This document shows, piece after piece, positions 1,847 through 46,312 of a stretch of DNA of 46,312 bases (within the stretch, counting starts at the first letter, position 1; each line of letters opens with the position of its first letter). The stretch comes from an uncultured Alphaproteobacteria bacterium. GTDB taxonomy: Bacteria; Pseudomonadota; Alphaproteobacteria; Rs-D84. Both the position numbers and the translations under genes were made by a program. Below the pieces are notes generated by a model. The model saw nothing but the letters and a program-made list of their open reading frames with translations. It did no database searches and had not been told where the DNA came from. The DNA lies in the NCBI GenBank assembly GCA_947168075.1, contig CAMVKK010000001.1:1-46312 (forward strand). The letters are read 5' to 3'.

Positions 1847-1853
1847 ATTTATT

Positions 1854-2401: not shown

Positions 2402-2430
2402 CCAGTATTAATACATATATAATATAAGCG

Positions 2431-3489: not shown

Positions 3490-3504
3490 TATATGGGGGT
3501 TACC

Positions 3505-4496: not shown

Positions 4497-4499
4497 AAA

Positions 4500-5003
4500 A
4501 TGATAAAAAAATGCGAACACGCCGGATGCACAAAGGCAGGAAGTTGCCGTTGTCCGAAAACACGCGATTTGCGTGAATATTGGTATTTTTGTCCGGAACA
4601 CGCGGCGGAATATAATAAAAATTGGAATTATTATGCGGGTATGTCGGCGGACGAAATAGAAGAAGATTGGGAACGCCAAACATTTGGTTCGCCATTAAAA
4701 GACAAAGATAAAGCCAACGCAGACGAAGCAAATTACATAAAATTCTTAAATGACTTTATAAATGGTCGCAGCGCGTTTGATAAAATACCGAAAAAGACCG
4801 CCCTGCCCGGTCCTGTGATGAGTGCATTGAAAGTATTCGATTTACCAATCTCGGCATCCTGGCGCGAAGTTGGTGTGCGCTATCGCGCGCTGGCTAAAAA
4901 GCATCACCCCGACACGGCGACAAACAAGACCGCCGCTGCAACCGAATTCGCGCGGATTTCCGCCGCATACGACACACTTAAAAAATATTTTGGAAAGAAA
5001 TAA
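4500..5003 (+). CDS. J-domain protein (C-terminal DnaJ domain, Cys-rich N-terminus)
   Basis: 167 aa with an HPD motif in ALAKKHHPD near the C-terminus and N-terminal CEHAGC..CRCP..FCPEHAAEYNKNWNYY. GGGGG Shine-Dalgarno site upstream. Confidence 0.85.
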   Translation: MIKKCEHAGCTKAGSCRCPKTRDLREYWYFCPEHAAEYNKNWNYYAGMSADEIEEDWERQTFGSPLKDKDKANADEANYIKFLNDFINGRSAFDKIPKKTALPGPVMSALKVFDLPISASWREVGVRYRALAKKHHPDTATNKTAAATEFARISAAYDTLKKYFGKK

Positions 5004-5025
5004 ACGCGCCAATGGCGCGTTTTTT
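5002..5025. terminator. bidirectional intrinsic terminator (J-domain gene / trxB)
   Basis: AAACGCGCC-aat-GGCGCGTTT hairpin flanked by an A-run and a T-run, between convergent genes. Confidence 0.7.
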
Positions 5026-5932
5026 ATTCCCGTGAATTCAGATACGCAATTGCGTCCATGGCGGCGGCGCAACCTGTGCCAACCGCGGTTGCAATTTGCA
5101 TTTTTATATTGCTGTGCACATCGCCCGCAACAAATGTTCCAGTCGGTAATTTATTTGGTATAAGCCGCCCCATTTCATCACGTGGAACCCCCTCGTCCAG
5201 ATAATCGGTATTCGCTTCGTGACCAATTGCGACAAACAATCCATCTGTTTCAATTTCTTTATCATCCAATGTTGTTACAACCAACTTTTCCGTTCCAGGC
5301 ACCGCCGCAATTTTTTTCAAATCGGTATTAAACAGACATTCGATATTCTTGCGTTCTGCGACACGATTGCGCAGAACTTCTTCGGCACGGAAAAACGAAC
5401 CCTTGCGATAAACTATCTTTACAGATTTCGCAACATCCGCCAAATACAGCGCATCATTTAACGCCGCATTTCCGCCGCCCATTACCATTACATCTTTGCC
5501 ATAATAGAAAAACCCATCACATGTGGCACAGTATGAAACACCGTGTCCCATTAATTCACGCGCACCTTCTATTTCCAGTTTGCGGGGACTTGCACCAGTT
5601 GCAAATATAACCGTTTTTCCAACATAATTTTTGCCGTCGTCGCATGCAACATTAAATCCACTTTCGGCATCACCATCAACCGATGTCGCCGATGCAAATA
5701 CTATTTTTGCGCCGAACGATTCCGCCTGGCTCTTCATAAATTCCGCCAGCGACAATCCGTCACCCGACCAGCCCGGATAATTTTCCAACTTTGCAATTGT
5801 GGACATTTGCCCGCCCAATGTCGGTCCGCCCAAGATAATTGTTTTCTTGTTTGCGCGCCCCGCGTACAGTGCTGCGGTAAGCCCAGCCGGCCCCGACCCC
5901 AAAATAATTACATCATAAATTGTGATTTCCAT
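5024..5932 (-). CDS. trxB: thioredoxin-disulfide reductase
   Basis: GSGPAG FAD motif and redox-active CATC (VSYCATCDGFFY). Start trimmed to the ATG at 5932 (MEITIYDVIILGSGPAG), which has AAAGGAA upstream. Confidence 0.95.
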   Translation of the reverse strand: MEITIYDVIILGSGPAGLTAALYAGRANKKTIILGGPTLGGQMSTIAKLENYPGWSGDGLSLAEFMKSQAESFGAKIVFASATSVDGDAESGFNVACDDGKNYVGKTVIFATGASPRKLEIEGARELMGHGVSYCATCDGFFYYGKDVMVMGGGNAALNDALYLADVAKSVKIVYRKGSFFRAEEVLRNRVAERKNIECLFNTDLKKIAAVPGTEKLVVTTLDDKEIETDGLFVAIGHEANTDYLDEGVPRDEMGRLIPNKLPTGTFVAGDVHSNIKMQIATAVGTGCAAAMDAIAYLNSRE

Positions 5933-31853: not shown

Positions 31854-33434
31854 ATGAATATGTACAAGTTTTTAGAAAACACTGTTTCGCAGTTCCCAGA
31901 TAATTTGTTTCTGGTCCGTGAAAAGGTTACATACACCGAATTCATAGAATTGGTTCGGGCTCGTGCCGCATCTTTACACAAAGCGGGCGTAAAACCGGGT
32001 GATGTTATTGGTGTTTTATCGCATAACATTCCGGAATTTCCGATAACATTATTTGCGATTTGGTATTTGGGTGGTCGTGTTTTAATGTTGGATACGAACC
32101 TGACACCGTTTGAATATGACAATATGACCGCGATTGCCGATTGTCACTTTGTCTGTGCCGAAGAATCGTTTTTTTATAAAACAAAAAATTTCACATTTTA
32201 TGATATTACCAAGAAAGACGGAAAACCCGACCCGGATCTGGAACCGGCACCCGTCGAATCGTTGGACATTGCGATATTATCATTTACATCGGGTTCAACC
32301 GGCACGCCCAAGGTTGTGCCATTAACACACTTTAACCTGATTGAATGTGCACATTCGTTAAAGGACATGCGGGACTATATTGAACCGGGTTATTACCTGT
32401 ATGGATTTTTACCAATGTACCACATATTCGGTTTCGCTGTGGAAATTTTGGCAACAATTGAATACGGTTGCGGTGTTATTTTACAGCCCAGCATTAATCC
32501 AAAATTACTGATGGCGGACTTTGTCGAATTCCGTCCCCAGGTAATTCCTGCTGTCCCCCGCCTATTCGAGGTTATTCGTAACCGTATTATCGATCAATTA
32601 AAGGCGCGTCATCTGTGGCTATTCGCATCGTTTGTTTTGAAATATGGCAAAACATTAGAAAAATTGGGATTGGGCTTTTTGGTACGCAAGGTCCAAGATC
32701 CCGTCCGCAACATATTTGGTGGCCGCGTAACATTACTGGTCGCCGGTGGTGCCGCCACCAAGCCCGAGGTTGAAACTTTTTACGAACGTTTGGGCATGCC
32801 GTTTATCCAAGGCTATGGTATGACGGAAACGGTTGGACCAATCTGTATTTCGAAACGCACAAAAAAGCGTGTTCCGTTTGCGTTTGGTGCACCAACAACA
32901 AATAACGAAGTCGAAATCCGCAACAAAGATGCCGATGGTATTGGCGTTCTTTGGGTTCGCGGTCACCAGGTGTTTGACGGCTATCTGAATAATCCCGAGG
33001 TTAACAGCCAGGTATTCGATGAACACGGATTTTTCAACACTGGCGATTTAGTGTCAATGGACAAAAACGGCGAATTACATTTTGCTGGACGCAAAAAACA
33101 AGTGATTGTTTTAGATTCTGGTAAAAATGTTTATCCTGATGAATTGGAAGCAATGTTTATGAAAATTCCTGGTGTTAAAAATGTTGCGGTATTCGAACAT
33201 AAATTAGAGGATAAAACCGTTGCATATGCCGTATTCAGTGTAGACGAAGGTATGACAATTGACAAATTGGCCACCGCGGTTGCAAATGCGAACAAGAAAT
33301 TGGCGTCGTATAAATGGGTTACGCACTTTGCGATGACGACGGACGATTTACCAACAACCAGCACGCAAAAGGTTAAACACCATGTTGTGCGGCAAAACCT
33401 TATTGATGGTAAATATCCGATTCAAAAACAGTAA
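31854..33434 (+). CDS. AMP-dependent synthetase/ligase (long-chain acyl-CoA synthetase-like)
   Basis: AMP-binding motif LSFTSGSTGTPKVV, plus GYGMTE and TGD motifs. Confidence 0.85.
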   Translation: MNMYKFLENTVSQFPDNLFLVREKVTYTEFIELVRARAASLHKAGVKPGDVIGVLSHNIPEFPITLFAIWYLGGRVLMLDTNLTPFEYDNMTAIADCHFVCAEESFFYKTKNFTFYDITKKDGKPDPDLEPAPVESLDIAILSFTSGSTGTPKVVPLTHFNLIECAHSLKDMRDYIEPGYYLYGFLPMYHIFGFAVEILATIEYGCGVILQPSINPKLLMADFVEFRPQVIPAVPRLFEVIRNRIIDQLKARHLWLFASFVLKYGKTLEKLGLGFLVRKVQDPVRNIFGGRVTLLVAGGAATKPEVETFYERLGMPFIQGYGMTETVGPICISKRTKKRVPFAFGAPTTNNEVEIRNKDADGIGVLWVRGHQVFDGYLNNPEVNSQVFDEHGFFNTGDLVSMDKNGELHFAGRKKQVIVLDSGKNVYPDELEAMFMKIPGVKNVAVFEHKLEDKTVAYAVFSVDEGMTIDKLATAVANANKKLASYKWVTHFAMTTDDLPTTSTQKVKHHVVRQNLIDGKYPIQKQ

Positions 33435-33436
33435 AT

Positions 33437-33464
33437 AAAAAACCGACCGTTTGGTCGGTTTTTT
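33437..33464. terminator. bidirectional intrinsic terminator
   Basis: AAAAACCGACC-gttt-GGTCGGTTTTTT. Confidence 0.75.
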
Positions 33465-33489
33465 ATTTTTTCCATCTTTTTTTATCGTC

Positions 33490-34215
33490 TTATTCTATCA
33501 CAAAACTGCGCGGATAATAATCGCTATAGAAACGTCCATCTGTGGCGGTGAATTTCAAAACACAATAGTTCGGATCTGTAACACCCCCAGGATAATATTC
33601 TGTGTCCCCGTCTCGCCAAATCATCTCTTTGGTCTTGGCATCTGTCAATACTTCCATTGTGCCACGCAACATAACCCCGATGAAATTTTTTGAATCACAG
33701 AAATATATGCACGCTTTTGGATTCGCTTTGTAATGGGCCACACGCAAAGAAAAAGTATTGGTTGTAAAATAGAAAACCTTTATCCCGTCGTGCACACGTG
33801 GTGACAACATGGCTTTGGTGCATGGAAACCCGTCTTGGTCAACCGATGATATAAATGTAATTGGCGATGTATCCGCCATCTTGGCGACAAGTTCCTTGAC
33901 CCCTAACAAAGATGGATTTTCTGGCATATCATTTGAAATGGTTATTTGGCTGCGCCAACGTTTCAGATACGGAAAATACATTTTCATTTGACCAATATAT
34001 TCTTCTTTTGTTATCGGGTGTTCCAGGTTCTTATTAACTTCATCAATAAACCCTGCACAATGCTCTATCATTTCGTCCATTGTGCAATCTTGTAAGAATT
34101 TGCCATCTTTATAACAATAAATACAATAATCCGAATTCTTTGAACCGTCCGCATTTGTGCCATACAGCGATTCATCCGCCATTGGCATCGCACAACTTTG
34201 ACATATTTTTTGCAT
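33490..34215 (-). CDS. zinc-ribbon domain fused to a pyridoxamine 5'-phosphate oxidase-family (FMN-binding split barrel) domain
   Basis: N-terminus CQSCAMPM...GTNADGSKNSDYCIYCYKDGKF matches the putative zinc-ribbon family. The C-terminal ~130 aa are PNPOx/general-stress-protein-26-like. Confidence 0.75.
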   Translation of the reverse strand: MQKICQSCAMPMADESLYGTNADGSKNSDYCIYCYKDGKFLQDCTMDEMIEHCAGFIDEVNKNLEHPITKEEYIGQMKMYFPYLKRWRSQITISNDMPENPSLLGVKELVAKMADTSPITFISSVDQDGFPCTKAMLSPRVHDGIKVFYFTTNTFSLRVAHYKANPKACIYFCDSKNFIGVMLRGTMEVLTDAKTKEMIWRDGDTEYYPGGVTDPNYCVLKFTATDGRFYSDYYPRSFVIE

Positions 34216-34287
34216 ATTTTTCCCCTATTCTGTTAACACGAATATTTTATCATCACAAATCACTAAAAACAACCAAGTAAAAATTTA

Positions 34288-34317
34288 TTTACAAAAAAAC
34301 ACATAATTGAATATAAT
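34288..34317 (+). promoter_or_regulatory. putative promoter for the W-rich mini-peptide
   Basis: TTTACA, 18-nt spacer, TATAAT (34312-34317). Confidence 0.5.
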
Positions 34318-34354
34318 CATAATGTGTTACAACCAACACACAAAGGAGTTAAAA

Positions 34355-34468
34355 ATGTTTACAATTATATTTATTATTTTGAAATTGACGAAAACTGTTA
34401 AATGGTCATGGTGGTGGATACTGTTAACATTGGCACTGGATGGCGGATTTTTTGGCCGTATAATTTAA
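34355..34468 (+). CDS. 37-aa W-rich membrane peptide (Tmemb_185A / Fragile-X-F-like repeat unit), not in the ORF track
   Basis: AAAGGAG Shine-Dalgarno site 7 nt upstream of the ATG at 34355. Sequence MFTIIFIILKLTKTVKWSWWWILLTLALDGGFFGRII. Own promoter and terminator. Confidence 0.5.
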   Translation: MFTIIFIILKLTKTVKWSWWWILLTLALDGGFFGRII

Positions 34469-34480
34469 TATTTCATAAAT

Positions 34481-34510
34481 AAAACCGCGCCCAATTGGTG
34501 CGGTTTTTTT
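34481..34510 (+). terminator. intrinsic terminator after the mini-peptide gene
   Basis: ACCGCGCC-caatt-GGTGCGGT (one G-U pair) followed by TTTTTTT. Confidence 0.7.
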
Positions 34511-34517
34511 ATTTCAC

Positions 34518-34589
34518 TTGAAAAAAATGCCATTTTTTGGTATAATACCTGGTGCATTCAGGGACATTTTCGTCCCGTTTTTTATTTCC
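34518..34589 (+). promoter_or_regulatory. promoter + promoter-proximal terminator module, copy A
   Basis: TTGAAA (34518-34523), spacer aaaatGCCATTTTttgg, TATAAT (34541-34546), 14 nt, GGGAC-attttc-GTCCC (34561-34576), G, TTTTTT, ATTTCC. Paralogous to 44756-44826. Confidence 0.6.
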
Positions 34590-34617
34590 AAATTTTAATA
34601 AAACAAAAGGAAAAGAT

Positions 34618-35100
34618 ATGTCACGACAAATACAAATTCGGCGCGGCACCGCGGCGGAACATGCAACCTTTACCGGCGCAGTCGGTGAAGTTACAATGGA
34701 CACAACAAACAAAACACTTCGCGTACATGACGGAACAACCGTTGGTGGTATACCTCTGGCGCGTGCTGATGCGGTACCATCAGATATTACCAATAAAATG
34801 ATTCCTGATTATGCCAATGGCATAGCAATGAATATGACCATAACAGAACAAACATACACATGCCCGTCCAATGGTGTTATTATGGCCGACACCAGTGGGT
34901 TTAATTGGGCATATGGATATATCAAAATAAATGGTGTAACCATGTTTAATGTAACAACAAATGGCAGCGGATCTTTTGTTAACGGTAACGGTCAATTTAT
35001 TGTTGGTGCGGGCGACGTTATAGCCTATAAATCGGGCTATGTGCATGAAACCGTACATCCGTCAACAAATAAACTTACATTTTTTCCGTTTCGATCATGA
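34618..35100 (+). CDS. phage tail-fibre-like protein (hyaluronidase / Mtd N-terminal-type domain plus a small C-terminal tip)
   Basis: The N-terminus MSRQIQIRRGTAAEHATFTGAVGEVTMDTTNKTLRVHDGTTVGGIPLA is the conserved N-terminal module of many phage tail fibres. ATG at 34618 with AAGGA upstream. The track start at 34552 lies inside the leader. Confidence 0.75.
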   Translation: MSRQIQIRRGTAAEHATFTGAVGEVTMDTTNKTLRVHDGTTVGGIPLARADAVPSDITNKMIPDYANGIAMNMTITEQTYTCPSNGVIMADTSGFNWAYGYIKINGVTMFNVTTNGSGSFVNGNGQFIVGAGDVIAYKSGYVHETVHPSTNKLTFFPFRS

Positions 35101-36035
35101 TTTATGGAAAGATACACGAATAATGCCAAATAATTTAAAGATTACTTTATTTCCGACACGATAACGATGATATATAAATCTATGAACAAACCGGCGACTA
35201 CGTTCATGACGATATGTTGCTTTTACATCGGGGCGCGTTTTGGAAAAATCGCATTTTTTTAATTGTTGCCATTCGTATGCTGCGGTTTTGTCCGCCATTG
35301 CTTGAATTTTGGTGGTGTTTGCCATGGTATTTGCGCCATGCCAACGATATGAAAACAGAACTTTATCAATATACTTTATTTTTGCGTATTTTGATATCTG
35401 CATCATAAACCACCAATCTTCCAATGGTGCATCCGGTGTAAATTCACCGGTTTTTTTAAGTATATCTCGACGAATAAGGTATCCGTTCGGAATATAATTT
35501 CGACCAAACAATGTCGCATATGTTCCAAATTGTTCCGAATCAAAATCTATGTCGGCATTAGTTGCACGTAGAAATTCACCAAATGTTTTGTGGCATATAC
35601 ATTGTTACGCACCGCATCCCAATATGCGCGTTTCCCATCAGCATCAATAATTTCATTATCGCCAACCGCCAGTGCGTAATCTGGGTGTGATTCCATAAAT
35701 TCAATCAATGTTGATATTGCATTTGGTTTTGACATATCATCGGATGCAATATGATAGATATATTTACCACGCGCTTTTTCATAAAGTCTGTTTATAGTAC
35801 GACATGTTCCCATATTAGTTTGCGAATCAAAAAACACGCGTACGAATCGCGATTCCAGTTTTGGCATCATATCCAAAATTTTTTGTTTCGTGCTATCACG
35901 CGACCCATCGTCAATAATAACCAATTCAATATTATCATATGTCTGGGCAACCACAGAATTTAAACAGTCAACAATATATTTTTCATGATTGTATGCGGGA
36001 ATACATACAGACACCAATGGATGATTATTTAACAT
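35095..36035 (-). pseudogene. glycosyltransferase family 2, interrupted by a frameshift
   Basis: N-terminal fragment (36035-35547: VSVCIPAYNHEKYIVDCLNSVVAQTY..IDDGSRD..ASDD) and C-terminal fragment (to 35095: ..FGRNYIPNGYLIRRDI..) lie in different frames. Both frames are open only in 35550-35604, which contains a T4 run at 35586-35589. Confidence 0.65.
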
Positions 36036-36771
36036 GATATTTCCTTCGTAAATTGTGCTTTATTTTACCAATTGGAATCATGTTTATTAATATACGTGTA
36101 AATTCGCGTTTTATTTTTTTGCCAAAGGCAATATTTAATTTAAAATTCTGTAAATGCTTTATCAGTATATCGCCAATCACAACATAATCCAATTCAGAAG
36201 TTTTATCTTTATAATCATCGTATATGCGAATAATGTGGTCGGACACTTGTTCCGTTTGCTTTTTACTGTTGGAATTTGAAAAATACAACAAATCTACCAC
36301 AGTATCAGGGAAAGCATCGGCTATTATTTGGTGTCCACGAATCAAATCTTTATTATCAACGATATCATGATCTTTAACAGGCGTTTCTATATAGACAACC
36401 AAAACACGTTGTGATTTATCTATTGATTCCAGTAATCTTGATATACGGCGTGCATATTTTTCAGATACCGCAGGATATGTTTCGTCCAGTGGACGACCCG
36501 TCGCAAAATCATGATTAAATGTCAGGTCATTGTATTTATTGTGATATGCATCACATGATATGCTGCGTTCAGAATATGTGTATTCTAAATCATTTTTTTC
36601 AATAAACCTGTTAAAACGAGATGCCACTATCTTGCAGCGTCCGATAAAATCAGAACCGAACAACCAATCCAAGGGGTATGATTTTAATTGTAAATCAGCA
36701 CCACGTAATGCGGATGTGCAAGAACATGCTTCACCAACACTAAAAATTAAATCGTATTTTTGCTTTCTCAT
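36025..36771 (-). CDS. DUF1796-like protein (putative papain-like cysteine peptidase fold)
   Basis: N-terminus LIFSVGEACSCTSALRGADLQLKSYPLDWLF resembles the DUF1796 sLG.nC....l+......PFDW block (from memory). Confidence 0.6.
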   Translation of the reverse strand: MRKQKYDLIFSVGEACSCTSALRGADLQLKSYPLDWLFGSDFIGRCKIVASRFNRFIEKNDLEYTYSERSISCDAYHNKYNDLTFNHDFATGRPLDETYPAVSEKYARRISRLLESIDKSQRVLVVYIETPVKDHDIVDNKDLIRGHQIIADAFPDTVVDLLYFSNSNSKKQTEQVSDHIIRIYDDYKDKTSELDYVVIGDILIKHLQNFKLNIAFGKKIKREFTRILINMIPIGKIKHNLRRKYHVK

Positions 36772-36793
36772 TTTGACTCACTATCCTAATGTA

Positions 36794-37771
36794 TTAAATG
36801 AATAATATAATATGTAAAATAATTGATACACACAATACACTACTTATGATCCAAAGTGCTATACGTAATTTTTTCAGGTCGTGTTTGTATTTTCGCACTT
36901 TTACAAAACCGCATGGTATGTTTGCTGTTAGTGTTACTGTCAACTTATTAAAGCATTCCTGCTTATCAATGCCTGCATAATCACAAAACTTATCATAGTA
37001 TTTATAATATGCAGATATACAGTCGTTATTGATAATAGAGTCACGAATATAACCGAAAACATCATCATACCATGCGTTCGGTTTAATGCCGTGAAAATGA
37101 ATTATTTTTGCATTTGGATTATAACCATAATATGGCTTCCAGTTATATTCCAAAGGTAATTTATCAAACACGCCACGATATAAATCATTTAAATATCCCT
37201 GGTCACAGCATTCAATGGTTGCCGTCTGTCCATTGTTTATCATTTCCAAAAATTCTTTGTACTTGTCGCGCATTTTAGGGACATTGATAAGCATTATACC
37301 GGCGTTAAAATAAGTATAATCTTGTGTTTTTTCAAATTCCGGACAAACACCGATATATTCTGGCAATTTTCCAAAATCCGATAATTTAATATCCTGTAAA
37401 AACATAACATCTGTATCAACATACAGCACATATTCATCATCAGTTACATCCGGCAACAACATACGCAAGAATCGCGCACGCAAAGATTTTTCTGATATCT
37501 GCGTTTTAAAGTGATGTTGCATAAATTCAGGCGTATAAATTTTTAAAATCTGGGGTAAAAACGGAATTGTCTTGATATGAACCGTAACATCATATTTACG
37601 CAATATCGCATATAATTTATCATTTTTTTCACCATCATAAAGACAATGTAAATCCAATGTAGTGTTTGCGCGCGCACTGGCCAGTGTCGCAATCAACATA
37701 TCTGTGTATATTTTATTGTTTTCAATATCGTTACTGAACGCAAAGAAACACTTTAATTTATTTCCACTCAT
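36794..37771 (-). CDS. glycosyltransferase family 8 with a C-terminal TM anchor
   Basis: [15 protein letters not shown] (DxD), [11 protein letters not shown] and HFHG motifs. C-terminal helix [24 protein letters not shown]. Confidence 0.85.
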
Positions 37772-38846
37772 TTAATAACCTCACTATTGTTTTGATTTCA
37801 TCATCCGTCATAACTGGTGACATTGGAATCGACATAATTGTCCGGTGAATTTCTTCGGTAATTGGGAACGATTGGTTGTTCCATTCAGCGTACGCGCCCT
37901 GTTTGTGCGGCGGGGTTGGATAGTGAATATTTGTTTGAATCCCGTTATCGTTCAGGTATTTACATAATTCATCACGATTTTCCGTGCGCAATGCGAAAAC
38001 ATGCCACACATGTGCATTTTCATCATATGTTTTTGGCAATATGATTTTTGGATTTGTGATGTTTTCACGATAATATTTAGCAATTTCACGACGACGCGCA
38101 TTGTCCGCATCCAGATGCGGCAATTTAACATCCAGCAATGCTGCTTGAATTTCATCCAGACGTGAATTGACCCCTTTATAAATATGATGATATTTGCGGT
38201 CGGAACCATAGTTCGCAATAGCCCTTACTTTATTAAACAATTCGGTGTCGTTGGTTGTTACACCACCGGCATCACCCAACGCCCCTAGGTTTTTGCCCGG
38301 ATAAAATGAAAACGCCGCTGCATCGCCCAAATTACCAACGCGCCGACCGTCATACATTGCACCATGCGCCTGGGCTGCATCTTCAATTACTTTCAGATTA
38401 TACTTTTTTGCTAATTCCCAGATTTTTTTCATCTGCACAGCCTGACCATACAGGTGGACAACAATAATCGCACGGGTGTGTTCTGTGATTTTTTCTTCGA
38501 TTTTTTCTGGGTCAATATTATATGTGTTTATATCCGGTTCAACCAACACCGGCGTACACCCGTTTTCAGAGATCGCCAAAATTGTCGCAATATATGTATT
38601 TGCCGGAACAATTATTTCATCACCCACGCCAAATCCATAGCCACGTATAATAAGATTTATTGCATCCAACCCATTTGCGACACCAACCGCATGTTTTGTT
38701 CCACAGAATTCCGCAAAATGTTTCGTAAATTCATCGTTCCATTTGCCCGACAAATACCATCCAGAATCCAATATTTCTTTGATTCGTGCATCCATTTCAT
38801 CACGAAAACGATTGTTTATTTTTTCCAGGTCTAAAAATTTAATCAT
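37758..38846 (-). CDS. DegT/DnrJ/EryC1/StrS-family sugar aminotransferase (FdtB/QdtB-like)
   Basis: PLP-lysine context [17 protein letters not shown]. Start trimmed to the ATG at 38846 (MIKFLDLEK), which has GGGGG upstream and an ATGA overlap with the upstream gene. Confidence 0.92.
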
Positions 38847-39832
38847 AATATTACCCCCAATACTGCTATCACTATCACAGCCGCCAATACGCATAATACG
38901 ATATTAAAAAGCCGTTTATATTTTTTATATTTTTTTACATTTTCATCCGGCACATCGCGGAAAATACTCGTTCTTGGCAATTTTAGATATTCAAAAATAT
39001 TCCACCATGTATCCGCATGCTGGGGGGTTCCATTCCATGGTTTCGATGCCGCAAAATGTAAAATTTTTGGATTAATGATGGAATCAAACATTTCATCACG
39101 ACTGTAATGGCTGATAAAATCCGGTTTTCGCAACAAATCCAACAAATACGGATAAGAAATATAATTCAACGGCAAAAATGCCACATGGTTTTCACATGCA
39201 ATATTCATAATATCTTGATCATTAAAGCGTTTGATAATCGTATCGTCATGCACAATTTCCAGCATACGCGATTCCAAATTGTCCGCACGAATTTTTTTAA
39301 GATTCATAACCCATATTCCACCTGCAATATATGTATCGTGCAGCATTTCAAAGTGTTCAGGTTTAAGGTGCGACAATTCGTCCGCCACATATTTCATAAA
39401 TGGTCCACGCACACCGGCAATATATTTCCCACGCAAATCAATATCGTATATTTCCGAAATATCGTCCATAAACACCACATCAACATCGGAATAGATTATT
39501 TTATCATACTGTGGAAAGAATCGCGCCGCAAAGCACCGCAGAATTGTATCAGCGGTAAACCGTGATCCCGCATGACCCGATGAAAAAGAACCAGAATTAA
39601 ATTCATCAGACAAAAATCCGGCAGTATCGTGAAATTCCAATATTGCATTTTTAAAACGACCAACCACCGATTGCAAAAGTTTTATATTTTCGTCTGAAAT
39701 ATCGTGGTGTAAAACATGCATTTCATAAAAAATGTCCCGCCCTGCCCGATTAAGCAACGAATAAAACGCCACCGCCGCTGGCACAACATAGTTATTATCA
39801 AATGTAAAAAATATTGGTATATGTTTCATCAT
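38843..39832 (-). CDS. glycosyltransferase family 8 with a C-terminal TM anchor
   Basis: [37 protein letters not shown] and [11 protein letters not shown] motifs. C-terminal helix [26 protein letters not shown] overlap with the glf stop. Confidence 0.85.
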
Positions 39833-40923
39833 CTTATTCCGTTTAATATTTCCATACAACGCGCGATTGCTTTGTCCATATCATAATACTTATATTCGCC
39901 CAAACGACCACAGAAATATACATTTGGCATATCGCGCGCCAAGGTTAAATATTTGTTATAAAGTTCCGCTGTATCATCATTTGCAATCGGGTAATAACGT
40001 TCATTTTTACCACGTTCAAATTTTTCCGGATATTCATAGGAAACAATCGTTTTATCTGATTTGTCATTAAGAAAATACTTATATTCCCCGATACGCGTCC
40101 AGTCATAATTACACGGATAATTTATAACAGCGGCATCTTGGAAACGTGCAAAAGGATACTTTATAAATTCGAAATGTTCACTGCGATATGGTAATTCACC
40201 AAATTTATAATCAAAAAATTCATCGATGCTGCCGGTCCAAAACAAACGGTCATATCTCATAGACCCGTCAAATGGTGTTTTTAATTTTACAGTTATATTC
40301 GGATGTTCCAACATTTTTTGAACCATTTTAGTATATCCACCGATTGGAATTCCTTGGTATTTATCTTGGAAATAGCGATCATCACGCGACACATATACCG
40401 GCACACGTCCCGATACAGTGGGATCGATTTCATCGGGTCTTTTTCCCCACTGTTTTAATGTGTATTCCAAAAATATTTTATCATAAATATATTGTGCCAA
40501 GAATTTAAGGTCTTTATCATCTTTCTTGCGCAATTCCAGAATTGGAACTTTGACATTCAACCCGAAATTATCCAGTAATTTTTGTTCAATGGTTTCAGCC
40601 AACGCGCCGGGAAAAACGGCATGCAACGTATTAAGATTAAATGGTATTGGCACAATTTGACCATCAATTAAACCACGAACTTTGTGCTGATACGGATACC
40701 ATTGACAAAAACGAGAAACGAAATCCCAAACTTCTTTATTATTAGTGTGGAAAATATGTGTTCCGTATTTATGCACACATATACCATCATCATAGTAATC
40801 ATAAATATTGCCAGCGATATGTTCCCGTGAATCTATGACGGTAACTTTTTGACCTGCATCGGCAAGCATCCGCGCAATTGTCGCCCCAGATATACCACAA
40901 CCAACAACAAGATTATTTACCAT
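39829..40923 (-). CDS. glf: UDP-galactopyranose mutase
   Basis: GCGISGATIARMLA...VIDSREHIAGNIYDY...VHKYGTHIFHT, 364 aa. Confidence 0.95.
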   Translation of the reverse strand: MVNNLVVGCGISGATIARMLADAGQKVTVIDSREHIAGNIYDYYDDGICVHKYGTHIFHTNNKEVWDFVSRFCQWYPYQHKVRGLIDGQIVPIPFNLNTLHAVFPGALAETIEQKLLDNFGLNVKVPILELRKKDDKDLKFLAQYIYDKIFLEYTLKQWGKRPDEIDPTVSGRVPVYVSRDDRYFQDKYQGIPIGGYTKMVQKMLEHPNITVKLKTPFDGSMRYDRLFWTGSIDEFFDYKFGELPYRSEHFEFIKYPFARFQDAAVINYPCNYDWTRIGEYKYFLNDKSDKTIVSYEYPEKFERGKNERYYPIANDDTAELYNKYLTLARDMPNVYFCGRLGEYKYYDMDKAIARCMEILNGIR

Positions 40924-42106
40924 TACATACCTCCGCTATCATATTGATATAATTTTTGGCAAACTGATTTGGGGAATAATGATCTGCCCATGCCTTTTTT
41001 ATATTGCCACTGTCGATTAAACGCCGCGTAGCACAGGAATCCAGTATCAACAACGTTTTTTTTATGCAGTCTTTTTCATCGTCATAAAGCGTTATAATGC
41101 CTGTATCGACATATACAGTTTTATTACCACCGGTGTCTGATGCAACGACATAGGTGCCTGTTGATAACACTTCTAATAAAATTAAATCAAAATAAGTTTG
41201 ACGATTTGGCAATATAAATACATCAGTTGCAGCTAAGACTTCGGCTGGATTTATTTGCCCCAGTTCAATCCAACGTGGATGTTCCAATGGCGCGATTTTC
41301 CCCATACGTCCACCAACCAGAAATGTAATATCATCGCGCACGTCCAATATTTGTTTGGCTATTTTCTGTAAAACATCATACCCCTTGATTTCATTATGTC
41401 GTCCGATATAGGTTACGACATAGGGTGTTTTAACATTATACCTTTTACGCATTTCATCGCGTGTTTTATCGGTTTGCAGTGGACGGCACCCCGTACGAAC
41501 ATACTTAATCTGATGCGTCTTTAACAATTCATCAAAATACGTCAGCGCGCCACTGTAACATTCCACTGATTCGGCCGATGGGAAAATATACATATCGGCG
41601 GCGGTAAATGCATCGCGTTCCACTTTTTGTGCCACCGCATAACGTGCGTCTGCATCTGGAATACCTTCCGCCAGGTCGCGATCATGGCTTTCTTCGGATG
41701 GTGGTTGTGGGCTGTGCGACATTTGCAATATTTTGGCAGATAATTTACGTGATTTAATATATTTTTTCGCAAATAACACATCATAAACAGAGTGAACTGT
41801 TATCGTTTGAAAATCATATTTATCCAACGCCTTTGCAAACAAGCGATATGTTAAATATTTTATTACATTCTGACGCATATTTCGCCGAACACGACCCACC
41901 GGAATGTAAAAACACAACATGCGTCCAATAAAATTTATTCTTTTTATCTGGCGCGGAAACATTGTGGCATTTATAAACACGATTTTATTCGGTATGTGTG
42001 ATTCATTAATCGCATGTTCCAAATTTGCAATATATCCAGACGGCCCACCGGCACGAATATTAACATCCTCACTCAGAAATACGATATTATCTACTTTTTT
42101 CTTCAT
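40913..42106 (-). CDS. glycosyltransferase family 4/1 (GT-B fold)
   Basis: C-terminal GT-B nucleotide-sugar-binding half ([32 protein letters not shown]). Start trimmed to the ATG at 42106. Confidence 0.8.
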
Positions 42107-42542
42107 ATTGAACCACTTTGGTAAATATTTTTGTATTTGCAGGAACATCTTTTGTTACAATTGCGCCGGCACCAACTATCGCGTTTTCGCCAATGGTTAC
42201 ACCTGGTAAAATCGTTGCGTTCGCACCAATCGATGCGCCACGTTTAATAATAACCGGTTCCAGTTTCCAATCTTTGTTCCGTGATTTTGGATATCGGTCG
42301 TTCGTAAAAGTTGCATTTGCCCCAATAAATACATTATCTTCGATAACCATGCCGTCCCATATTTGAACACCACACTTTATCGTAACGTTATTTCCAATCA
42401 CAACATCGTTTTCAATAAAGCAATGTGAACAAATATTGCAATTATTCCCTATTTTGGCGCCCGGCAACACAACACAGAATTGCCATATATTTGTATCTTT
42501 GCCAATGTTTTTGGATTGTACGTCTGATAATTGATGTATCAT
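42087..42542 (-). CDS. hexapeptide-repeat sugar N-acetyltransferase (FdtC/QdtC-like)
   Basis: Left-handed beta-helix repeats ([49 protein letters not shown]). Confidence 0.85.
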
Positions 42543-42937
42543 TTTGCAATCTCCGTTTTAAACTGTTCATAGTCGCGAATATAATCTGATTCATCATAGT
42601 GTTCCGATGCCAAAACCATAACAACACAATCGGGTGAAAAGTTTGTAAATTCGCGCCAAATGTTTGACTTTATGTGTAATCCAACCGCCGGATTATCTAG
42701 GTGTACTGTTACGCGTTCATGTCCATCGTCCAAAATAAAATCGCATGAGCCAGATGTACAAACAATAACCTGTTCCAAATTGCGATGCGCGTGCCGACCA
42801 CGAATTGCGTCCCTGTCTGTACCCCAAATATAGTACACCCGTTTAATATCAAACGGAAAATCCGTACCCTGTTCCAGTGCGACCAGGTTTCCCGTATGGT
42901 CACCACGAACTTTGAAATTTAACAATTCATACATCAT
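42539..42937 (-). CDS. dTDP-4-dehydro-6-deoxyglucose 3,4-ketoisomerase (WxcM/FdtA/QdtA cupin)
   Basis: 132 aa with [11 protein letters not shown]....[27 protein letters not shown], typical of FdtA-type isomerases. Confidence 0.9.
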
Positions 42938-42943
42938 ATAATG

Positions 42944-43789
42944 TTATCTCCACTTGATCTTGAACACCGGAATAAATTCAAACAGGTATACGCGATTATG
43001 TTTAATTTTAATCAACGGAATACCCAAAAACCGCAACCGAAAACGCGTCGTACATGCGTCGGATTCGCGCCATTCGTTCCAATACGCCGGAAACCGATTT
43101 ATAATATCCAACCGAACCGCGCGGTGCATTGTGTCCATGCGTGATTTCTGTTTATTTGATGTCTGGTTTTCAAATGTGCGGTATTTTACCAGCACTGTTT
43201 GCAAATTATGGAAATTTGTTACCGCCATTAAACGCGACCACAAACGATAATCTTCGCACGGGGAATAAAATTCTTCGTATTCAATATCGTTGTCAACCAA
43301 CACAGACTTACGCACCATTGCCGCCGTATGCCACACACAGCACCAATCGGTCATCGCAATTTTAATATCTGTATCAAATTCTGGAACAACGCGAACCGCA
43401 GATTTATCACCAAAATCACGGATAAACCCGGACACCACGCCAACATATGGGTTTGCATCCAGATATGCAACTTGTTTTTCTAATCTTTCTGGAACAGAAA
43501 TGTCGTCATGGTCAAATATTGCAATGTATTCCCCACGCGCCATCTTTAACAATTTATTGCGGCTTGGTGTAATGCCCATGTTTTTATCGTTTTTCGAATA
43601 TTTAATACGTTTATCTTTATAAGATTTCACGATTTTTTCAATTTCAGTATTATCCGGAGAATCGTTCAGAATCAAAAATTCAAAATCCGTAAATGTCTGA
43701 TTTAATATAGACTCAATCATTTCCCGCAAGTGCGCCGGATTTGTATTATAGATTGGCGTTAAAACAGACACACGTGGACACGTCTGCAT
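42944..43789 (-). CDS. glycosyltransferase family 2
   Basis: VSVLTPIYNTNPAHLREMIESILNQTF..LNDSPD..IFDHDD. AGGGAA Shine-Dalgarno site upstream. Confidence 0.9.
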   Translation of the reverse strand: MQTCPRVSVLTPIYNTNPAHLREMIESILNQTFTDFEFLILNDSPDNTEIEKIVKSYKDKRIKYSKNDKNMGITPSRNKLLKMARGEYIAIFDHDDISVPERLEKQVAYLDANPYVGVVSGFIRDFGDKSAVRVVPEFDTDIKIAMTDWCCVWHTAAMVRKSVLVDNDIEYEEFYSPCEDYRLWSRLMAVTNFHNLQTVLVKYRTFENQTSNKQKSRMDTMHRAVRLDIINRFPAYWNEWRESDACTTRFRLRFLGIPLIKIKHNRVYLFEFIPVFKIKWR

Positions 43790-43821
43790 AATATATTCCC
43801 TTTGGTTCAGATACTGTCCAC

Positions 43822-43850
43822 ATTGTAATCGATAAAATCCCGTTTTTCAA
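43822..43850 (-). promoter_or_regulatory. putative promoter of the minus-strand glycan operon
   Basis: On the minus strand: TTGAAA (43850-43845, overlapping the upstream stop codon), 17-nt spacer, TACAAT (43827-43822). Confidence 0.5.
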
Positions 43851-44599
43851 GCGATAAAGGGCTTTTTATTTCGGTGTATTCCAGTGCAAAAATCTTGTAT
43901 TCTTGTCGCTCTTTTTTCCAAAAATTTCATTTGGTTATCCAACAATTGTTCCCAATCCGACTGTTCCCATGCCAGTGGCGAATGATTAAAAACATCATCT
44001 TTATATTTTCCAAAGAAAAAATTAATCCGACCATTTTCAACCAAATCACCCAAGAAAAAATACTCCACATACCCATCAAATGTTTTGAACAAATCAAAAA
44101 AATTTTTATCCGCACAAATCGTTGTATAAAGCGGATTTTGGGCATTTTTATCGTTATAATATCGACGAATACATTCCAGTGTTAAATCAAATCTGTCCTT
44201 TATCAGATGATTTCGTCCGCGTTCTACATTGATGGAATTTTTGCGTTTCGGAAAAAGAATTTCACCCCCAATTGTATGCGCCATATCCAAATATTTTTTA
44301 TATAGTTTTTTGTAATGATCGGACGTATTTTCCAAATGTTTTGCATTTATATTTTTATATTCTCTGTACCGTTCGTTCATATTCAGTATGCAATCACTGC
44401 CCAGGCGCATATTTTCGGGACTGTCGATATAAAGGTAATCATAGCTCATATCACCCCCAGGGGTCAGAATAATATTGTCCGATTTCCGGCTGTACAACAT
44501 TATCTGATATTCCCGTAATTTCTTGCTAAATATATCTGGATCGGTCCCCGATGAATCAACCCAAAAGTTAAGGTTCACATCTATATCTTGTAACTGCAT
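43847..44599 (-). CDS. conserved hypothetical protein (I recall the motifs as the uncharacterised DUF6994 family; unverified)
   Basis: 250 aa with GTDPDIFSKKLREYQ near the N-terminus and IKDRFDLTLECIRRYY in the middle. ATG at 44599 with AAAGGA upstream. The track's longer start would include its own promoter. Confidence 0.7.
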   Translation of the reverse strand: MQLQDIDVNLNFWVDSSGTDPDIFSKKLREYQIMLYSRKSDNIILTPGGDMSYDYLYIDSPENMRLGSDCILNMNERYREYKNINAKHLENTSDHYKKLYKKYLDMAHTIGGEILFPKRKNSINVERGRNHLIKDRFDLTLECIRRYYNDKNAQNPLYTTICADKNFFDLFKTFDGYVEYFFLGDLVENGRINFFFGKYKDDVFNHSPLAWEQSDWEQLLDNQMKFLEKRATRIQDFCTGIHRNKKPFIA

Positions 44600-44620
44600 T
44601 GAACTATCCTTTGAACCAAA

Positions 44621-44649
44621 ATTATACCACACGAATTAATAAATTACAA
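44621..44649 (-). promoter_or_regulatory. sigma70-type promoter of the DUF6994-like gene
   Basis: On the minus strand: TTGTAA (44649-44644), 17-nt spacer ending in TGG, TATAAT (44626-44621). Confidence 0.6.
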
Positions 44650-44666
44650 AATTATCACTACCCGAC

Positions 44667-44700
44667 AAAACAAAAACCGACCGAAACGGTCGGTTTGTGT
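44667..44700 (-). terminator. intrinsic terminator with no gene upstream of it (insulator-like)
   Basis: ACCGACCG-aaa-CGGTCGGT. On the minus strand it is followed by TTTTTGTTTTG. On the plus strand it is followed by TTGTGTT after the stem (weaker). Confidence 0.65.
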
Positions 44701-44755
44701 TCTGGTGGGGTTAAAAATTAGTACGGTATCTTACATACAACACACTGCTTAATTC

Positions 44756-44826
44756 TTGATTTTTAGGCCATTTTATGATATAATCTCTGACAATTGAAGG
44801 CGCATTGTTGCGCCGTTTTTATTGCC
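44756..44826 (+). promoter_or_regulatory. promoter + promoter-proximal terminator module, copy B
   Basis: TTGATT (44756-44761), spacer tttagGCCATTTTatga, TATAAT (44779-44784), 14 nt, GGCGC-attgtt-GCGCC (44799-44814), G, TTTTT, ATTGCC. Confidence 0.6.
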
Positions 44827-44860
44827 TGCAATATCACCCACAAAATTTTGCAATTTTGCG

Positions 44861-44884
44861 GGGCCCAATGTGCGGGCTTTTTTT
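44861..44884 (+). terminator. second, weaker hairpin/U7 in the leader of the MuF-GH108 gene
   Basis: GCCC (44863-44866) pairs with GGGC (44874-44877), with a 7-nt loop and two possible G-U extensions, followed by TTTTTTT (44878-44884). Confidence 0.4.
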
Positions 44885-44903
44885 ATTTAACAAAGGATAT
44901 AAG

Positions 44904-45761
44904 ATGAACAAAATACCAGAAAACATATTAAACCTTATGCAAAGCGATGCATATGTAAATTCTAACAATCCAGAACACCAAAATGTTGCAAAGCAAATTC
45001 AAAATTATTTTGAAAACAAATATGGCAACAGCACGATTGATGCAACTGGACGCAATATAACGATTAGAAAAGCATGGTGCTGGCATGCCATAATAGACGA
45101 AAGAACTTGCGAAGATTGTGCAAGTTTTTCTGATACTATTTATGAAAACGAAGAAGATATCCCAGAACACCCACATCATGACAATTGTCGGTGCTGGATA
45201 GAAGAAATTGAATTAGATGATAATAACAAGCCTGTTGTTGATACTCGCAAACAAGGTATTATTCATAAAACCATGGCAGAGGAAGGCGGATATGTGGATA
45301 ATCCAAAACTGATTGATCAACCGACAAATTCAGGTATAACACAACCAACATTGGATAAATACAATGCAGATCATCCAGATTTTAATTTTCCAGATAAAGT
45401 GAAAGATTTATCACCAGAACAGGCACGTCAAATATACGGTGAAGATTACTATGACGAACGCCGTATTGGTGATATAGAAAACGAACGCATTGCCAACGCG
45501 ATATTTGATATGGGCGTTATGAGTAATTTCAATAATGTTGGAAAAATCGTCCAAGAAACATTAAACGATTCAATGGGAGCAAATCTAAAAACAGATGGTA
45601 AAATCGGTGACAATACCATAGATGCTTTGAACAATATACCGGATAATAAAATTGACGATTTTATGCAAGATTTAAAAGAAAACAGAATCGAGTATCTGCA
45701 AGGTTTATCTGATTGGGACAAATATGGAAACGGATGGACAAGTCGTACAAATAGATATTGA
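44904..45761 (+). CDS. fusion protein: phage MuF/SPP1-gp7-type C-terminal motif + GH108 N-acetylmuramidase + PG_binding_3 domain
   Basis: WCWHAIIDERTCEDCASFS...HPHHDNCRCW (MuF-type W..D.RtC..C...hpNCRC), then AEEGGYVDNP....TNSGIT (GH108 EGGY block), then KTDGKIGDNTIDAL...GNGWTSR (PG_binding_3). ATG at 44904 with AAAGGA upstream. No signal peptide. Confidence 0.8.
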   Translation: MNKIPENILNLMQSDAYVNSNNPEHQNVAKQIQNYFENKYGNSTIDATGRNITIRKAWCWHAIIDERTCEDCASFSDTIYENEEDIPEHPHHDNCRCWIEEIELDDNNKPVVDTRKQGIIHKTMAEEGGYVDNPKLIDQPTNSGITQPTLDKYNADHPDFNFPDKVKDLSPEQARQIYGEDYYDERRIGDIENERIANAIFDMGVMSNFNNVGKIVQETLNDSMGANLKTDGKIGDNTIDALNNIPDNKIDDFMQDLKENRIEYLQGLSDWDKYGNGWTSRTNRY

Positions 45762-45793
45762 TTTCTTTGTATATATCCTGCAATAATAAGTGT

Positions 45794-46291
45794 ATGAAAA
45801 AGTTAGCGTTTGTATTATTATTGATAATTCCAATGGTTGCTGTTGCCGATAGGCGTAGTGATTTTGTTAATAAAATACTTGAATATGAAAACACACAAAC
45901 CGACAATAATACCGCACGAATAAATACGTATGGTGTAAATCAAGAAAAACTTGATATGTATCGGGCCGCACATCCGCGTTATAATTTTCCAGAATCCATA
46001 AAAAATTTAAATGAAAAACAAGCCAAACAAATTTTGTCTTATTTCTGGGACAATTACAGGTTTAGCGATTATAAGTATGATGAGATTCAAGAAAAAGTTT
46101 GGGATATGATGATTCATATGTCTATGTCTGATTTAGAAAAACAAATCAACGAATGTATTCGTAAATACTATAAATTTGATGCTAGTTTTTATGCGCCATT
46201 CGGTTCGGTTGCTTCTGTTAGTTTATTAAATGGCATGGCATCAAAACATATCCCTGATTTTTATTTGATATTAAACGAAGTCAAATACTGA
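45794..46291 (+). CDS. secreted GH108-like paralogue lacking the EGGY and PG-binding motifs
   Basis: Signal peptide MKKLAFVLLLIIPMVAVA. LDMYRAAHPRYNFPESIKNLNEKQAKQI aligns with LDKYNADHPDFNFPDKVKDLSPEQARQI of the upstream protein, and LEYENTQ replaces AEEGGYV. The track start at 45758 is TTG. No strong Shine-Dalgarno site at 45794. Confidence 0.65.
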   Translation: MKKLAFVLLLIIPMVAVADRRSDFVNKILEYENTQTDNNTARINTYGVNQEKLDMYRAAHPRYNFPESIKNLNEKQAKQILSYFWDNYRFSDYKYDEIQEKVWDMMIHMSMSDLEKQINECIRKYYKFDASFYAPFGSVASVSLLNGMASKHIPDFYLILNEVKY

Positions 46292-46312
46292 TATGACAAA
46301 GATATTCACGAT

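Follow-up and report, generated by a model that had tools for sequence, protein, structure and literature searches.

A proposed polymorphic family of peptidoglycan-attacking proteins with a half-MuF module and exported or membrane partners in Candidatus Enterousia

The MuF polymorphic toxins of temperate phages, typified by Apk2 and Bxa, combine a conserved N-terminal MuF domain with a variable toxin domain, and are accompanied by an immunity gene in the adjacent position (Jamet et al. 2017, PMC5576092; PMC11699363). Here we analyze a pair of genes that invites comparison with these toxins and that lies at the 3' end of a 46,312-nucleotide stretch of DNA from an uncultured alphaproteobacterium of the order Rs-D84 (GenBank assembly GCA_947168075.1, contig CAMVKK010000001.1, positions 1 to 46,312 of the forward strand), the whole of which is hereafter called the window. 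Gene 1 (44904-45761, 285 aa) joins an N-terminal module related to one half of the MuF/SPP1-gp7 domain, which we call the N-module or half-MuF, to a GH108 muramidase domain and a peptidoglycan-binding domain. Gene 2 (45794-46291; 165 aa with the ATG of MKKLAF taken as the start) follows in the same direction and codes for a predicted exported and catalytically dead paralog of the gene 1 enzyme. Coordinates in the window are on the + strand unless noted otherwise; related loci and proteins are designated by L- and P-numbers. We interpret the pair as a chromosomal, non-prophage representative of a polymorphic protein family that attacks peptidoglycan and has not been described before, in the genome-reduced gut Alphaproteobacteria Candidatus Enterousia.

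Like the MuF toxins, this family couples a constant MuF-derived N-terminus to varied C-terminal enzymes, and like them it has a small neighboring gene that changes with the toxin domain, a likeness that concerns gene arrangement only. In contrast to them, it retains just the C-terminal ~95 residues of the MuF domain, lies outside prophages and head modules, and has exported or membrane proteins as partners. Moreover, every catalytic domain found here acts on periplasmic peptidoglycan, whereas the MuF toxins have cytoplasmic targets. The text of the 2017 survey of MuF toxins mentions no lysozyme or peptidoglycan domain (PMC5576092).

The enzymatic part of gene 1 has its closest described counterparts in the GH108 'secretion activator' muramidases SagA and TtsA (PDB 7DNP and 6V40), which are likewise leaderless combinations of GH108 and PG_binding_3 with the same fold and the catalytic Glu and Thr. 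Unlike gene 1, neither of these has an N-terminal MuF module, and no type IV secretion system (T4SS) or toxin cargo is seen near the pair. SagA offers a second parallel in its proposed periplasmic inhibitor, PhiA; however, PhiA is an MliC/PliC-type 8-stranded beta-barrel and no paralog of its enzyme, unlike the all-helical GH108-fold product of gene 2 (PMC8334348). Wall enzymes encoded beside exported self-protection genes are also found in the type VI secretion system (T6SS) pairs Tse3-Tsi3 and Tlde1-Tldi1, and in the Bdellovibrio DD-endopeptidases with Bd3460; the likeness to Tlde1-Tldi1 extends to one N-module family member that carries a Tlde1 domain. Neither T6SS genes nor targeting domains (PAAR, VgrG, MIX, Rhs) were seen in the window or the fetched loci, and here the enzyme has its own dead copy as candidate protector. 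Exported dead wall-hydrolase folds kept under selection are also represented by the LytM-fold pseudoenzymes EnvC, NlpD and DipM, but these regulate enzymes of different folds (amidases and lytic transglycosylases) and do not occur in a two-gene cassette with a leaderless paralog. Finally, phage endolysin cassettes, such as that of coliphage N4 gp61 or those behind the NCBIfam family 'holin-associated N-acetylmuramidase', share the GH108 catalytic domain; unlike these, the pair has no holin or spanin and no prophage, and carries the MuF module and the exported paralog in addition.

GH108 enzymes, MuF toxins and pairs of wall effectors and immunity proteins are thus already known. New, as far as the literature searched is concerned, are the occurrence of a half-MuF outside phages and the fact that all the catalytic domains found fused to it are those of wall enzymes (GH108, GH24, Tlde1 and M23); likewise new are a dead-paralog exported partner, a secreted family with four conserved cysteines (4-Cys) and a shared leader with tandem terminators.

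Domain architecture of the two proteins

The GH108 muramidase domain of gene 1 occupies residues 121-206 (45264-45521; Pfam Glyco_hydro_108, 58.8 bits against a cut-off of 21.2) and is followed by a PG_binding_3 domain at residues 214-281 (45543-45746; 26.8 bits against a cut-off of 24.6), which includes the DGKIG motif and the C-terminal W..YG.GW helix and aligns to SagA residues 107-161. The top PDB sequence matches are Brucella SagA (7DNP), Neisseria NMB1012, Salmonella TtsA and Sen1395, and an AlphaFold2 (AF2) model built with 34 homologs (pLDDT 87.4, pTM 0.81) is related by Foldseek to 7dnp, 2ikb and 6v40 with probability 1.0 and target-normalized TM values of 0.55-0.77. The catalytic residues of SagA are Glu17, Asp26 and Thr31, associated with a flexible loop (PMC8334348). 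In the alignment to 7DNP, Glu127 of the EGGY motif (EEGGY; 45282-45284) and Thr141 of DQPTN (45324-45326) correspond exactly to their SagA counterparts, with the Asp (D138) displaced by two residues in the loop; all three are at least 90% conserved across 34 sequences. The only low-confidence stretch of the model is the loop of residues 130-142, as expected given that the catalytic loop is mobile. Among family-level matches, PHROG 315 'endolysin' hits gene 1 at 8.7e-29, and the NCBIfam model holin_dep_muram ('holin-associated N-acetylmuramidase') scores 67.9 bits against a cut-off of 240. Taken together, the conserved residues and fold suggest that gene 1 encodes an active muramidase. The protein has no signal peptide or other hydrophobic segment, its highest 19-residue Kyte-Doolittle mean being 0.52.

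The N-terminal 110 residues of gene 1 (44904-45233) correspond to the C-terminal half of the MuF/SPP1-gp7 domain. Pfam Phage_Mu_F (PF04233) matches residues 53-98 with 25.4 bits against a cut-off of 29.6 (E 2.6e-5), spanning just positions 61-110 of the 112 in the profile. TIGR01641 also scores below its cut-off (19.8 against 39.65 bits), and several 'head morphogenesis' families of PHROGs match at 1e-4 to 1e-5. For profile-profile comparison with hhalign we used a reference of 15 canonical MuF proteins of ~200 aa, all of which match PF04233 and two of which are encoded directly after portal genes in viral contigs. Against this reference the N-module family was recovered with a probability of 99.8% (E 1.2e-28), its residues 12-107 being matched to the last ~95 MuF columns. 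By this profile evidence, the N-module is a true homolog of the C-terminal half of MuF, though not a full MuF domain and, by the Pfam threshold, not a member of that family.

Invariant across 34 sequences of the N-module are C69, C72, P87, P90, H92, C95, R96, C97 and W98, and this pattern suggests a putative Zn site made up of C69, C72, H91/H92, C95 and C97. The module is modeled by AF2 at pLDDT 80-95; a fold search with it returned no match in the PDB, and in BFVD weak minor-capsid/MuF matches only, with E above 1. A search of 1.84 billion representative proteins with the N-module profile gave 1444 matches at E <= 1e-3; the remote ones are proteins of ~200 aa that carry the motif at their C-terminus. 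The ~200-aa MuF proteins of this kind in IMG/VR end in ...C..C...P..PH.HCRCWIEEV, and their genes come immediately 3' of the portal gene, with the scaffold and capsid genes following; this portal arrangement is seen only with the canonical 200-aa MuF proteins.

The product of gene 2 begins with a predicted Sec-type signal peptide (residues 1-19, 45794-45850), in which cleavage after AVA would release the mature part at MKKLAFVLLLIIPMVAVA|D. The Kyte-Doolittle mean over residues 1-19 is 1.89, and the positive n-region, the 13-15 hydrophobic residues and the A-x-A|D site are conserved in an alignment of 35 homologs. The mature part (45851-46291) was assigned the GH108 fold by Pfam, BLASTP, AF2 and Foldseek. 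The Pfam GH108 score is 22.7 bits against a cut-off of 21.2, and BLASTP aligns gene 1 and gene 2 with 26% identity over 149 aa (E 1e-15), across both the GH108 and the peptidoglycan-binding regions. The AF2 model is all-helical (pLDDT 85.9) and superimposes over about 149 columns on the GH108 structures NMB1012, SagA and TtsA (TM about 0.58, probability 1.0); a PDB sequence search with gene 2 gave nothing significant, so that these GH108 relatives were found by fold comparison only. PHROGs returned no match for gene 2.

In the alignment to gene 1, the catalytic Glu of gene 2 is replaced by Tyr, the Asp is deleted and the Thr is replaced by Ile; among the 35 homologs, conservation is lowest in the stretch that corresponds to the catalytic helix and loop. 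The remainder is strongly conserved in the same set, with the signatures VNQEKLDMYRAAHPRYNFP..IK.L...QA.QIL.YFWDNYRF.DYKYDE and FYAPFGS.ASV.LLNG; FYAPFGS stands where gene 1 has DGKIG. Moreover, gene 2 stops before the W/F..GW helix, the last ~25 residues being missing, and the SagA counterparts of residues in this helix, Phe151 and Trp155, contact peptidoglycan (PMC8334348). Judged from its sequence and its conservation, gene 2 encodes an exported pseudoenzyme under purifying selection. With the catalytic Glu, Asp and Thr and the peptidoglycan-contacting helix lost, it probably neither cuts the wall nor binds it in the ancestral manner.

The initial annotation had delimited both open reading frames (ORFs) at these coordinates, and had described gene 1 as a MuF-GH108-PG_binding_3 fusion without a signal peptide and gene 2 as a paralog of its GH108 core with a signal peptide, with LEYENTQ in place of AEEGGYV and without the DGKIG motif. 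These features all stand up to the profile, hydropathy, BLASTP and fold comparisons or can be read directly in the sequence, save that the MuF part is the C-terminal half only, falls below the Pfam cut-off and owes its assignment to hhalign. The loss of the catalytic block in gene 2 also stands and turns out to go further than had been described, as the terminal helix is gone too. The promoter and tandem-terminator leader, the DUF488 gene and the polymorphic family context taken up below lie beyond that annotation.

As a side observation, L062 (9938-10378) encodes a chimeric ORF, P0212, with a gene-1-type GH108 catalytic N-terminus (EEAGY, DQPTN) and a gene-2-type body; the join falls at the shared HP.(F/Y)NFP stretch, and the ORF is either a recombinant between the paralogs or an assembly artefact.

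Cargo exchange, partner genes and the shared leader

The close homologs of both genes all come from metagenome-assembled genomes (MAGs) of gut and rumen, belonging to Candidatus Enterousia or other Alphaproteobacteria; one of the loci, L038, is a circular genome of 958,618 bp. We counted pairing by tblastn over 83 loci, with species-representative genomes. Gene 2 lies about 35 nucleotides 3' of the 285-aa form of gene 1 in about 31 of 32 such genomes, and is never adjacent to forms with a long N-module or with none. The forms without gene 2 comprise proteins of ~400 aa with an insertion in the N-module and proteins of ~180 aa from which the N-module has been deleted in frame. Across many species, identity does not fall below 52% for gene 1 and 40% for gene 2, with invariant motifs and fixed spacing.

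The catalytic domain attached to the N-module varies. Among the 20 top matches of its profile, Pfam identifies GH108, GH24/pesticin-like, Tlde1/YkuD and Peptidase_M23 domains, with 4 of the 20 having no catalytic domain; all the catalytic cargos found target peptidoglycan. The junction between module and cargo is conserved in the relatives as ...CRCW(I/V)EE..., and P0115, for instance, is 90% identical to gene 1 through ...CRCWIEEIELDD (WIEEIELDD), beyond which it continues as a GH24 phage-type lysozyme. Locus L091 (8001-10211) contains a long-N-module Tlde1/YkuD fusion, a 117-aa protein and then an 'orphan' GH108 cassette, which begins with a repeat (CFIEETSDEKGKTIAKKDYKA) of the full gene's junction (CQCSITEETLDEKGKTIAKKDYKA); housekeeping genes (BamA, RseP and RRF) flank the locus. 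This arrangement is a signature of cassette exchange. Orphan cargo cassettes that keep the junction occur in L091, L032 and L056, and further junction-bearing or Tlde1 variants within Enterousia are found in L032, L056 and L070. The long GH108 form adjoins an AmiC-like amidase in L006-L008.

The neighboring gene changes with the cargo. GH108 and GH24 genes without gene 2 are adjoined in at least 12 loci, including some from distant Alphaproteobacteria, by a gene of the 4-Cys family, secreted proteins of about 135 aa with four conserved cysteines (C...C...PD.C...CG). This gene is convergent to most of the forms without gene 2 (L006 11209-11619, L089 1077-1478 and L032 9242-9637, all on the - strand; also L046-48, L051, L053 and L056). 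The copies in L006 and L089 align at E 1e-18, and in L067, L071 and L074 the 4-Cys region forms a C-terminal domain. No relative of the family was found in Pfam or the PDB. We consider it a candidate new family of muramidase inhibitors or immunity proteins. Its identification with the LprI/DUF1311 lysozyme inhibitors was set aside, there being no Pfam or PDB match to support it; the sole LprI match belongs to a different neighbor, a 148-aa protein in L092, and is weak (E 0.008) and below the cut-off. Likewise, the Tlde1 form in L091 is followed by the 117-aa protein, which is hydrophobic (a membrane protein), and the M23 form by a 154-aa protein with a signal peptide.

The surroundings of the pair vary too. 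Across 28 loci the flanks fall into 13 upstream and 14 downstream clusters, and the pairs of the window, L012, L014 and L015, which are 95-97% identical, have different flanks in all four cases. The pair has a GC content of 33% against 41% for the window. A constant N-module, swappable cargo with a cognate neighbor, orphan cassettes and a variable context are the usual signatures of polymorphic toxin loci.

Two further loci show related arrangements. In L009 (8001-9285) a second GH108 copy, 181 aa long, has lost the N-module through an in-frame deletion and retains the promoter, the leader and the initial codons of gene 1; a resolvase-like gene (a weak Pfam Resolvase match) comes next. In another low-GC organism, L092 (2982-17017; also L093) carries an island next to a TpsB/TpsA two-partner secretion pair. 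In this island three wall-enzyme genes, for a 283-aa GH108 protein, a MuF-motif-M23 fusion and a GH24 fragment, are each accompanied by a small gene in convergent orientation.

Upstream of gene 1 lies a near-consensus sigma-70-type promoter (44756-44784; TTGATT, 17 nucleotides, TG-n-TATAAT) scoring 10/12 in a promoter scan and having an extended -10 element. An alignment of 16 loci shows little or no variation in its -35 TTGA and TGATATAAT box, regardless of the 5' context. Within the 5' untranslated region, the promoter is followed by two hairpins with U tracts. The first (44799-44822; GGCGCA-uugu-UGCGCC) is terminator-like and was detected by a terminator scan and RNAalifold. The second (44824-44887; outer stem GCCUGCA...UGCGGGC) was detected by the terminator scan, alignment, RNAalifold and folding. 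A ribosome-binding site, AAAGGA (44892-44897), follows 6 nucleotides before the ATG and is invariant in the alignment. In the lineage of the window, hairpin 2 has a 40-nucleotide insertion, with a local alternative at 44860-44880, and in other species its short form (e.g. GCCUGC-uucgu-GCGGGC) is conserved with covariation. Of the 11 pairs that RNAalifold derives from 18 leaders, 9 show compensatory double changes; in hairpin 1 two-sided compensatory changes affect 5 of 6 pairs, and almost no pairs are broken. The window leader (~110 nucleotides) has a minimum-free-energy fold of -34.7 kcal/mol (z -2.3), in which hairpin 1 forms. As scans of the window against Rfam (at the gathering threshold) and for tRNAs gave no matches, the two hairpins fall outside the known RNA families.

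The same promoter and hairpins stand 5' of every Enterousia cargo form examined, namely the 285-aa form, the second GH108 of L009, the long GH108 of L006 (9880-10000) and the Tlde1 form of L091 (7905-8012), and at the same position in L001-L061; the GH24 form of L089 (118-205) has the promoter and hairpin 1 only. A promoter placed directly before terminators makes the leader a candidate switch that may operate by attenuation or antitermination. The obvious analog is the lambdoid pR'-tR'/Q arrangement before lysis genes.

One nucleotide after the gene 2 stop, translation reveals the first codons of a DUF488 gene (MTKIFT...; 46293-46312), which runs past the window end and is probably the third gene of the operon. 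The same start is found in L009 (7342-7767) and L091 (7433-7858, - strand), and in at least 16 loci DUF488, in one orientation or the other, is a neighbor of the module. DUF488 matches the PADLOC candidate-defence model PDC-M45C (E 3.8e-33), and gene 1, gene 2 and the upstream DUF6994 gene gave no PADLOC match.

Candidate functions and genomic setting

Our preferred reading, which we hold tentatively, is that the pair represents a variant of the MuF polymorphic toxins that is directed at peptidoglycan and lies outside prophages, with gene 2, the dead paralog, as its periplasmic immunity or inhibitor partner. The gene 1 enzyme would act in a periplasm, either that of the producer or, more likely, that of a neighboring or partner cell, with the half-MuF module serving as a trafficking or adaptor part. 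Gene 2 would be the cognate periplasmic protector; it would bind the enzyme by imitating a GH108 partner and would neither cut nor bind the wall. Transcription from the strong promoter would normally be halted at the two leader terminators, so that read-through or antitermination would be needed. The muramidase activity of gene 1, its site of action, its exit from the cytoplasm, its binding and neutralization by gene 2 and the antitermination are steps that we infer. An effector with an immunity or inhibitor partner was among the functions proposed in the initial annotation, and this proposal has gained strength from the four peptidoglycan-targeting cargos, each with an exported or membrane partner of its own, a pattern that consists of gene arrangement only.

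Several observations weigh against this reading. No export or delivery route is evident: gene 1 has no signal peptide, and its surroundings showed no genes for a holin, T6SS, T4SS, portal or tail. The pair occurs in almost every species of a genus with ~1-Mb genomes, which resembles a core function more than an accessory weapon, and a cargo limited to wall enzymes would also fit housekeeping remodeling of the wall. There are also exceptions to the pairing: L025 is the sole locus in which the 285-aa form lacks an adjacent gene 2, and N-module-less GH108 copies without an adjacent partner exist as well. We know of no immunity protein that is a dead paralog of its own toxin. Furthermore, the known MuF toxins are unlike the pair in residing in prophage head modules and acting in the cytoplasm. 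A bolder form of the proposal, that the half-MuF is a new phage-independent export tag sending swappable wall enzymes into neighbor or host cells, that gene 2 is the first dead-paralog immunity protein and that expression is gated by antitermination, strikes us as rather unlikely.

The best-surviving alternative, which we regard as doubtful though worth serious attention, is that gene 1 is an endogenous autolysin with a housekeeping or 'space-making' role, comparable to that of SagA in the Brucella T4SS or of TtsA in the release of typhoid toxin, and that gene 2 is a regulatory pseudoenzyme. Dead paralogs acting as regulators of hydrolases are an established theme. On this account gene 2 would activate, localize or restrain gene 1 in the manner of the degenerate LytM proteins EnvC, NlpD and DipM, with the half-MuF in a regulatory or targeting role. 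It draws support from SagA and TtsA being the nearest solved relatives, from the retention of the pair in nearly every Enterousia species despite genomes of ~1 Mb, from the cargos of the N-module being wall enzymes throughout and from the AmiC-like amidase beside the long form. Further, purified PhiA, the proposed inhibitor of SagA, did not inhibit SagA in vitro (PMC8334348), and partners of this kind therefore need not be simple inhibitors. However, the plasticity of the locus, with its variable flanks at 95-97% identity, swaps of cargo and partner, orphan cassettes and low GC content, is unexpected for a housekeeping gene; there are no adjacent T4SS, toxin or holin genes; and the window already has a conventional lytic transglycosylase, MltA. 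The Tlde1 domain, which we take to be the catalytic domain of a T6SS antibacterial effector, also counts against this account.

The initial annotation had also suggested a particle-packaged or particle-delivered enzyme, or a lysis module. In the first of these the half-MuF would dock the muramidase to the portal of a prophage, gene transfer agent (GTA) or tailocin-like particle encoded elsewhere, to be packaged, ejected and to open the wall of the recipient. The case for it consists of the true homology of the N-module to the C-terminal half of MuF, whose canonical representatives follow portal genes in viral contigs, and of the leader, in that a strong promoter followed by terminators resembles Q antitermination of lambdoid late operons. 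MuF itself has been regarded as a capsid-targeting domain on injected effectors, and peptidoglycan enzymes incorporated into virions have been discussed as well (PMC5512222). Nonetheless, no portal, terminase, capsid or tail genes were found among the 30 ORFs scanned in the window (46 kb) or in the inspected gene tables of related loci, the fusion was not found among the 2.9 million viral contigs of IMG/VR, and half of the MuF domain is missing. Moreover, an ejected virion enzyme needs no exported partner, and no resident prophage or GTA has been reported for the ~1-Mb Enterousia genomes. We therefore consider particle delivery improbable.

As to a lysis module, no holin or spanin adjoins the pair, its neighbors being a DUF6994 gene on the opposite strand 5' and gene 2 and DUF488 3', and a holin-endolysin cassette was thereby ruled out; LrgAB lies 4 kb from the pair in one related locus only. 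An ordinary prophage extending past the window is likewise ruled out by the chromosomal genes found in related loci, where DUF488, RNase J, AlaRS, HU, gyrA, MerR, McrBC and similar genes lie 3' of the pair. The 30 scanned ORFs depict ordinary chromosome, with MutL, BipA, MltA, RuvABC, YebC, MnmE and a cluster of glycosyltransferase and sugar-modification genes, and the statement of the initial annotation that the window has no other phage structural genes holds for them, apart from a small stand-alone Mtd_N-domain protein (34552-35100, E 1.6e-17).

That the pair is left over from a prophage lysis or head module, now functionless and decaying, and that gene 2 is a degenerating duplicate, would fit the phage origin of both parts of gene 1, the lost catalytic residues of gene 2 and the existence of chimeric or truncated copies (P0212, P0116, L056), but intact ORFs and cross-species conservation (52% and 40% identity, motifs, signal peptide, spacing, promoter and leader) exclude it for practical purposes.

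The Mtd_N protein carries the N-terminal domain of the phage major tropism determinant or tail fibre. In 6 other loci, 7 in all and mostly from one syntenic group, a relative is encoded no more than 10 kb from the pair, and a tail-fibre link was set aside as a matter of this synteny. The last ~13 kb of the window (33000-46312) is GC-poor, at 33-40% against 42-48% elsewhere, and includes the DUF6994 gene (43847-44632, - strand); other contents of this region are GT2, two GT8, GT4, GLF, DegT, FdtA/WxcM, hexapeptide transferase and DUF1796 genes. It is probably a variable surface-polysaccharide region.

In other genomes the module is found directly 3' of a tRNA gene and its terminator (L023, L029, L036, L058, L025, L026, L031, L061 and L006), the 3' side of tRNA genes being a typical insertion hot spot; the window copy has no tRNA nearby. 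The pair in L009 is immediately preceded (1-5385) by genes for a Schlafen-like helicase, a 444-aa protein and a 671-aa reverse transcriptase, and in L005 McrBC and a type ISP restriction enzyme lie 3' of it; judging from these neighbors the module is often placed among defence genes.

Implications

For the questions of how the MuF toxins leave their producer and what purpose they serve, a MuF-derived module that is free of prophages, carries periplasm-acting cargo only and is associated with exported partners provides a simpler system, in which to ask what the module binds. A partner that is a dead paralog of its enzyme, be it an inhibitor or an activator, would add a new mode of muramidase control, and the promoter with its tandem-terminator leader represents a compact candidate antitermination switch. 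The genomes of Candidatus Enterousia (order Rs-D84) measure 0.75-1.0 Mb, and an obligately symbiotic or parasitic life, in which metabolites are drawn from other cells, has been predicted for the genus (PMC12306168). For such uncultured organisms of ~1 Mb, with their predicted dependence on other cells, wall-cutting enzymes that are conserved and at the same time diversifying are a candidate means of opening their partners.

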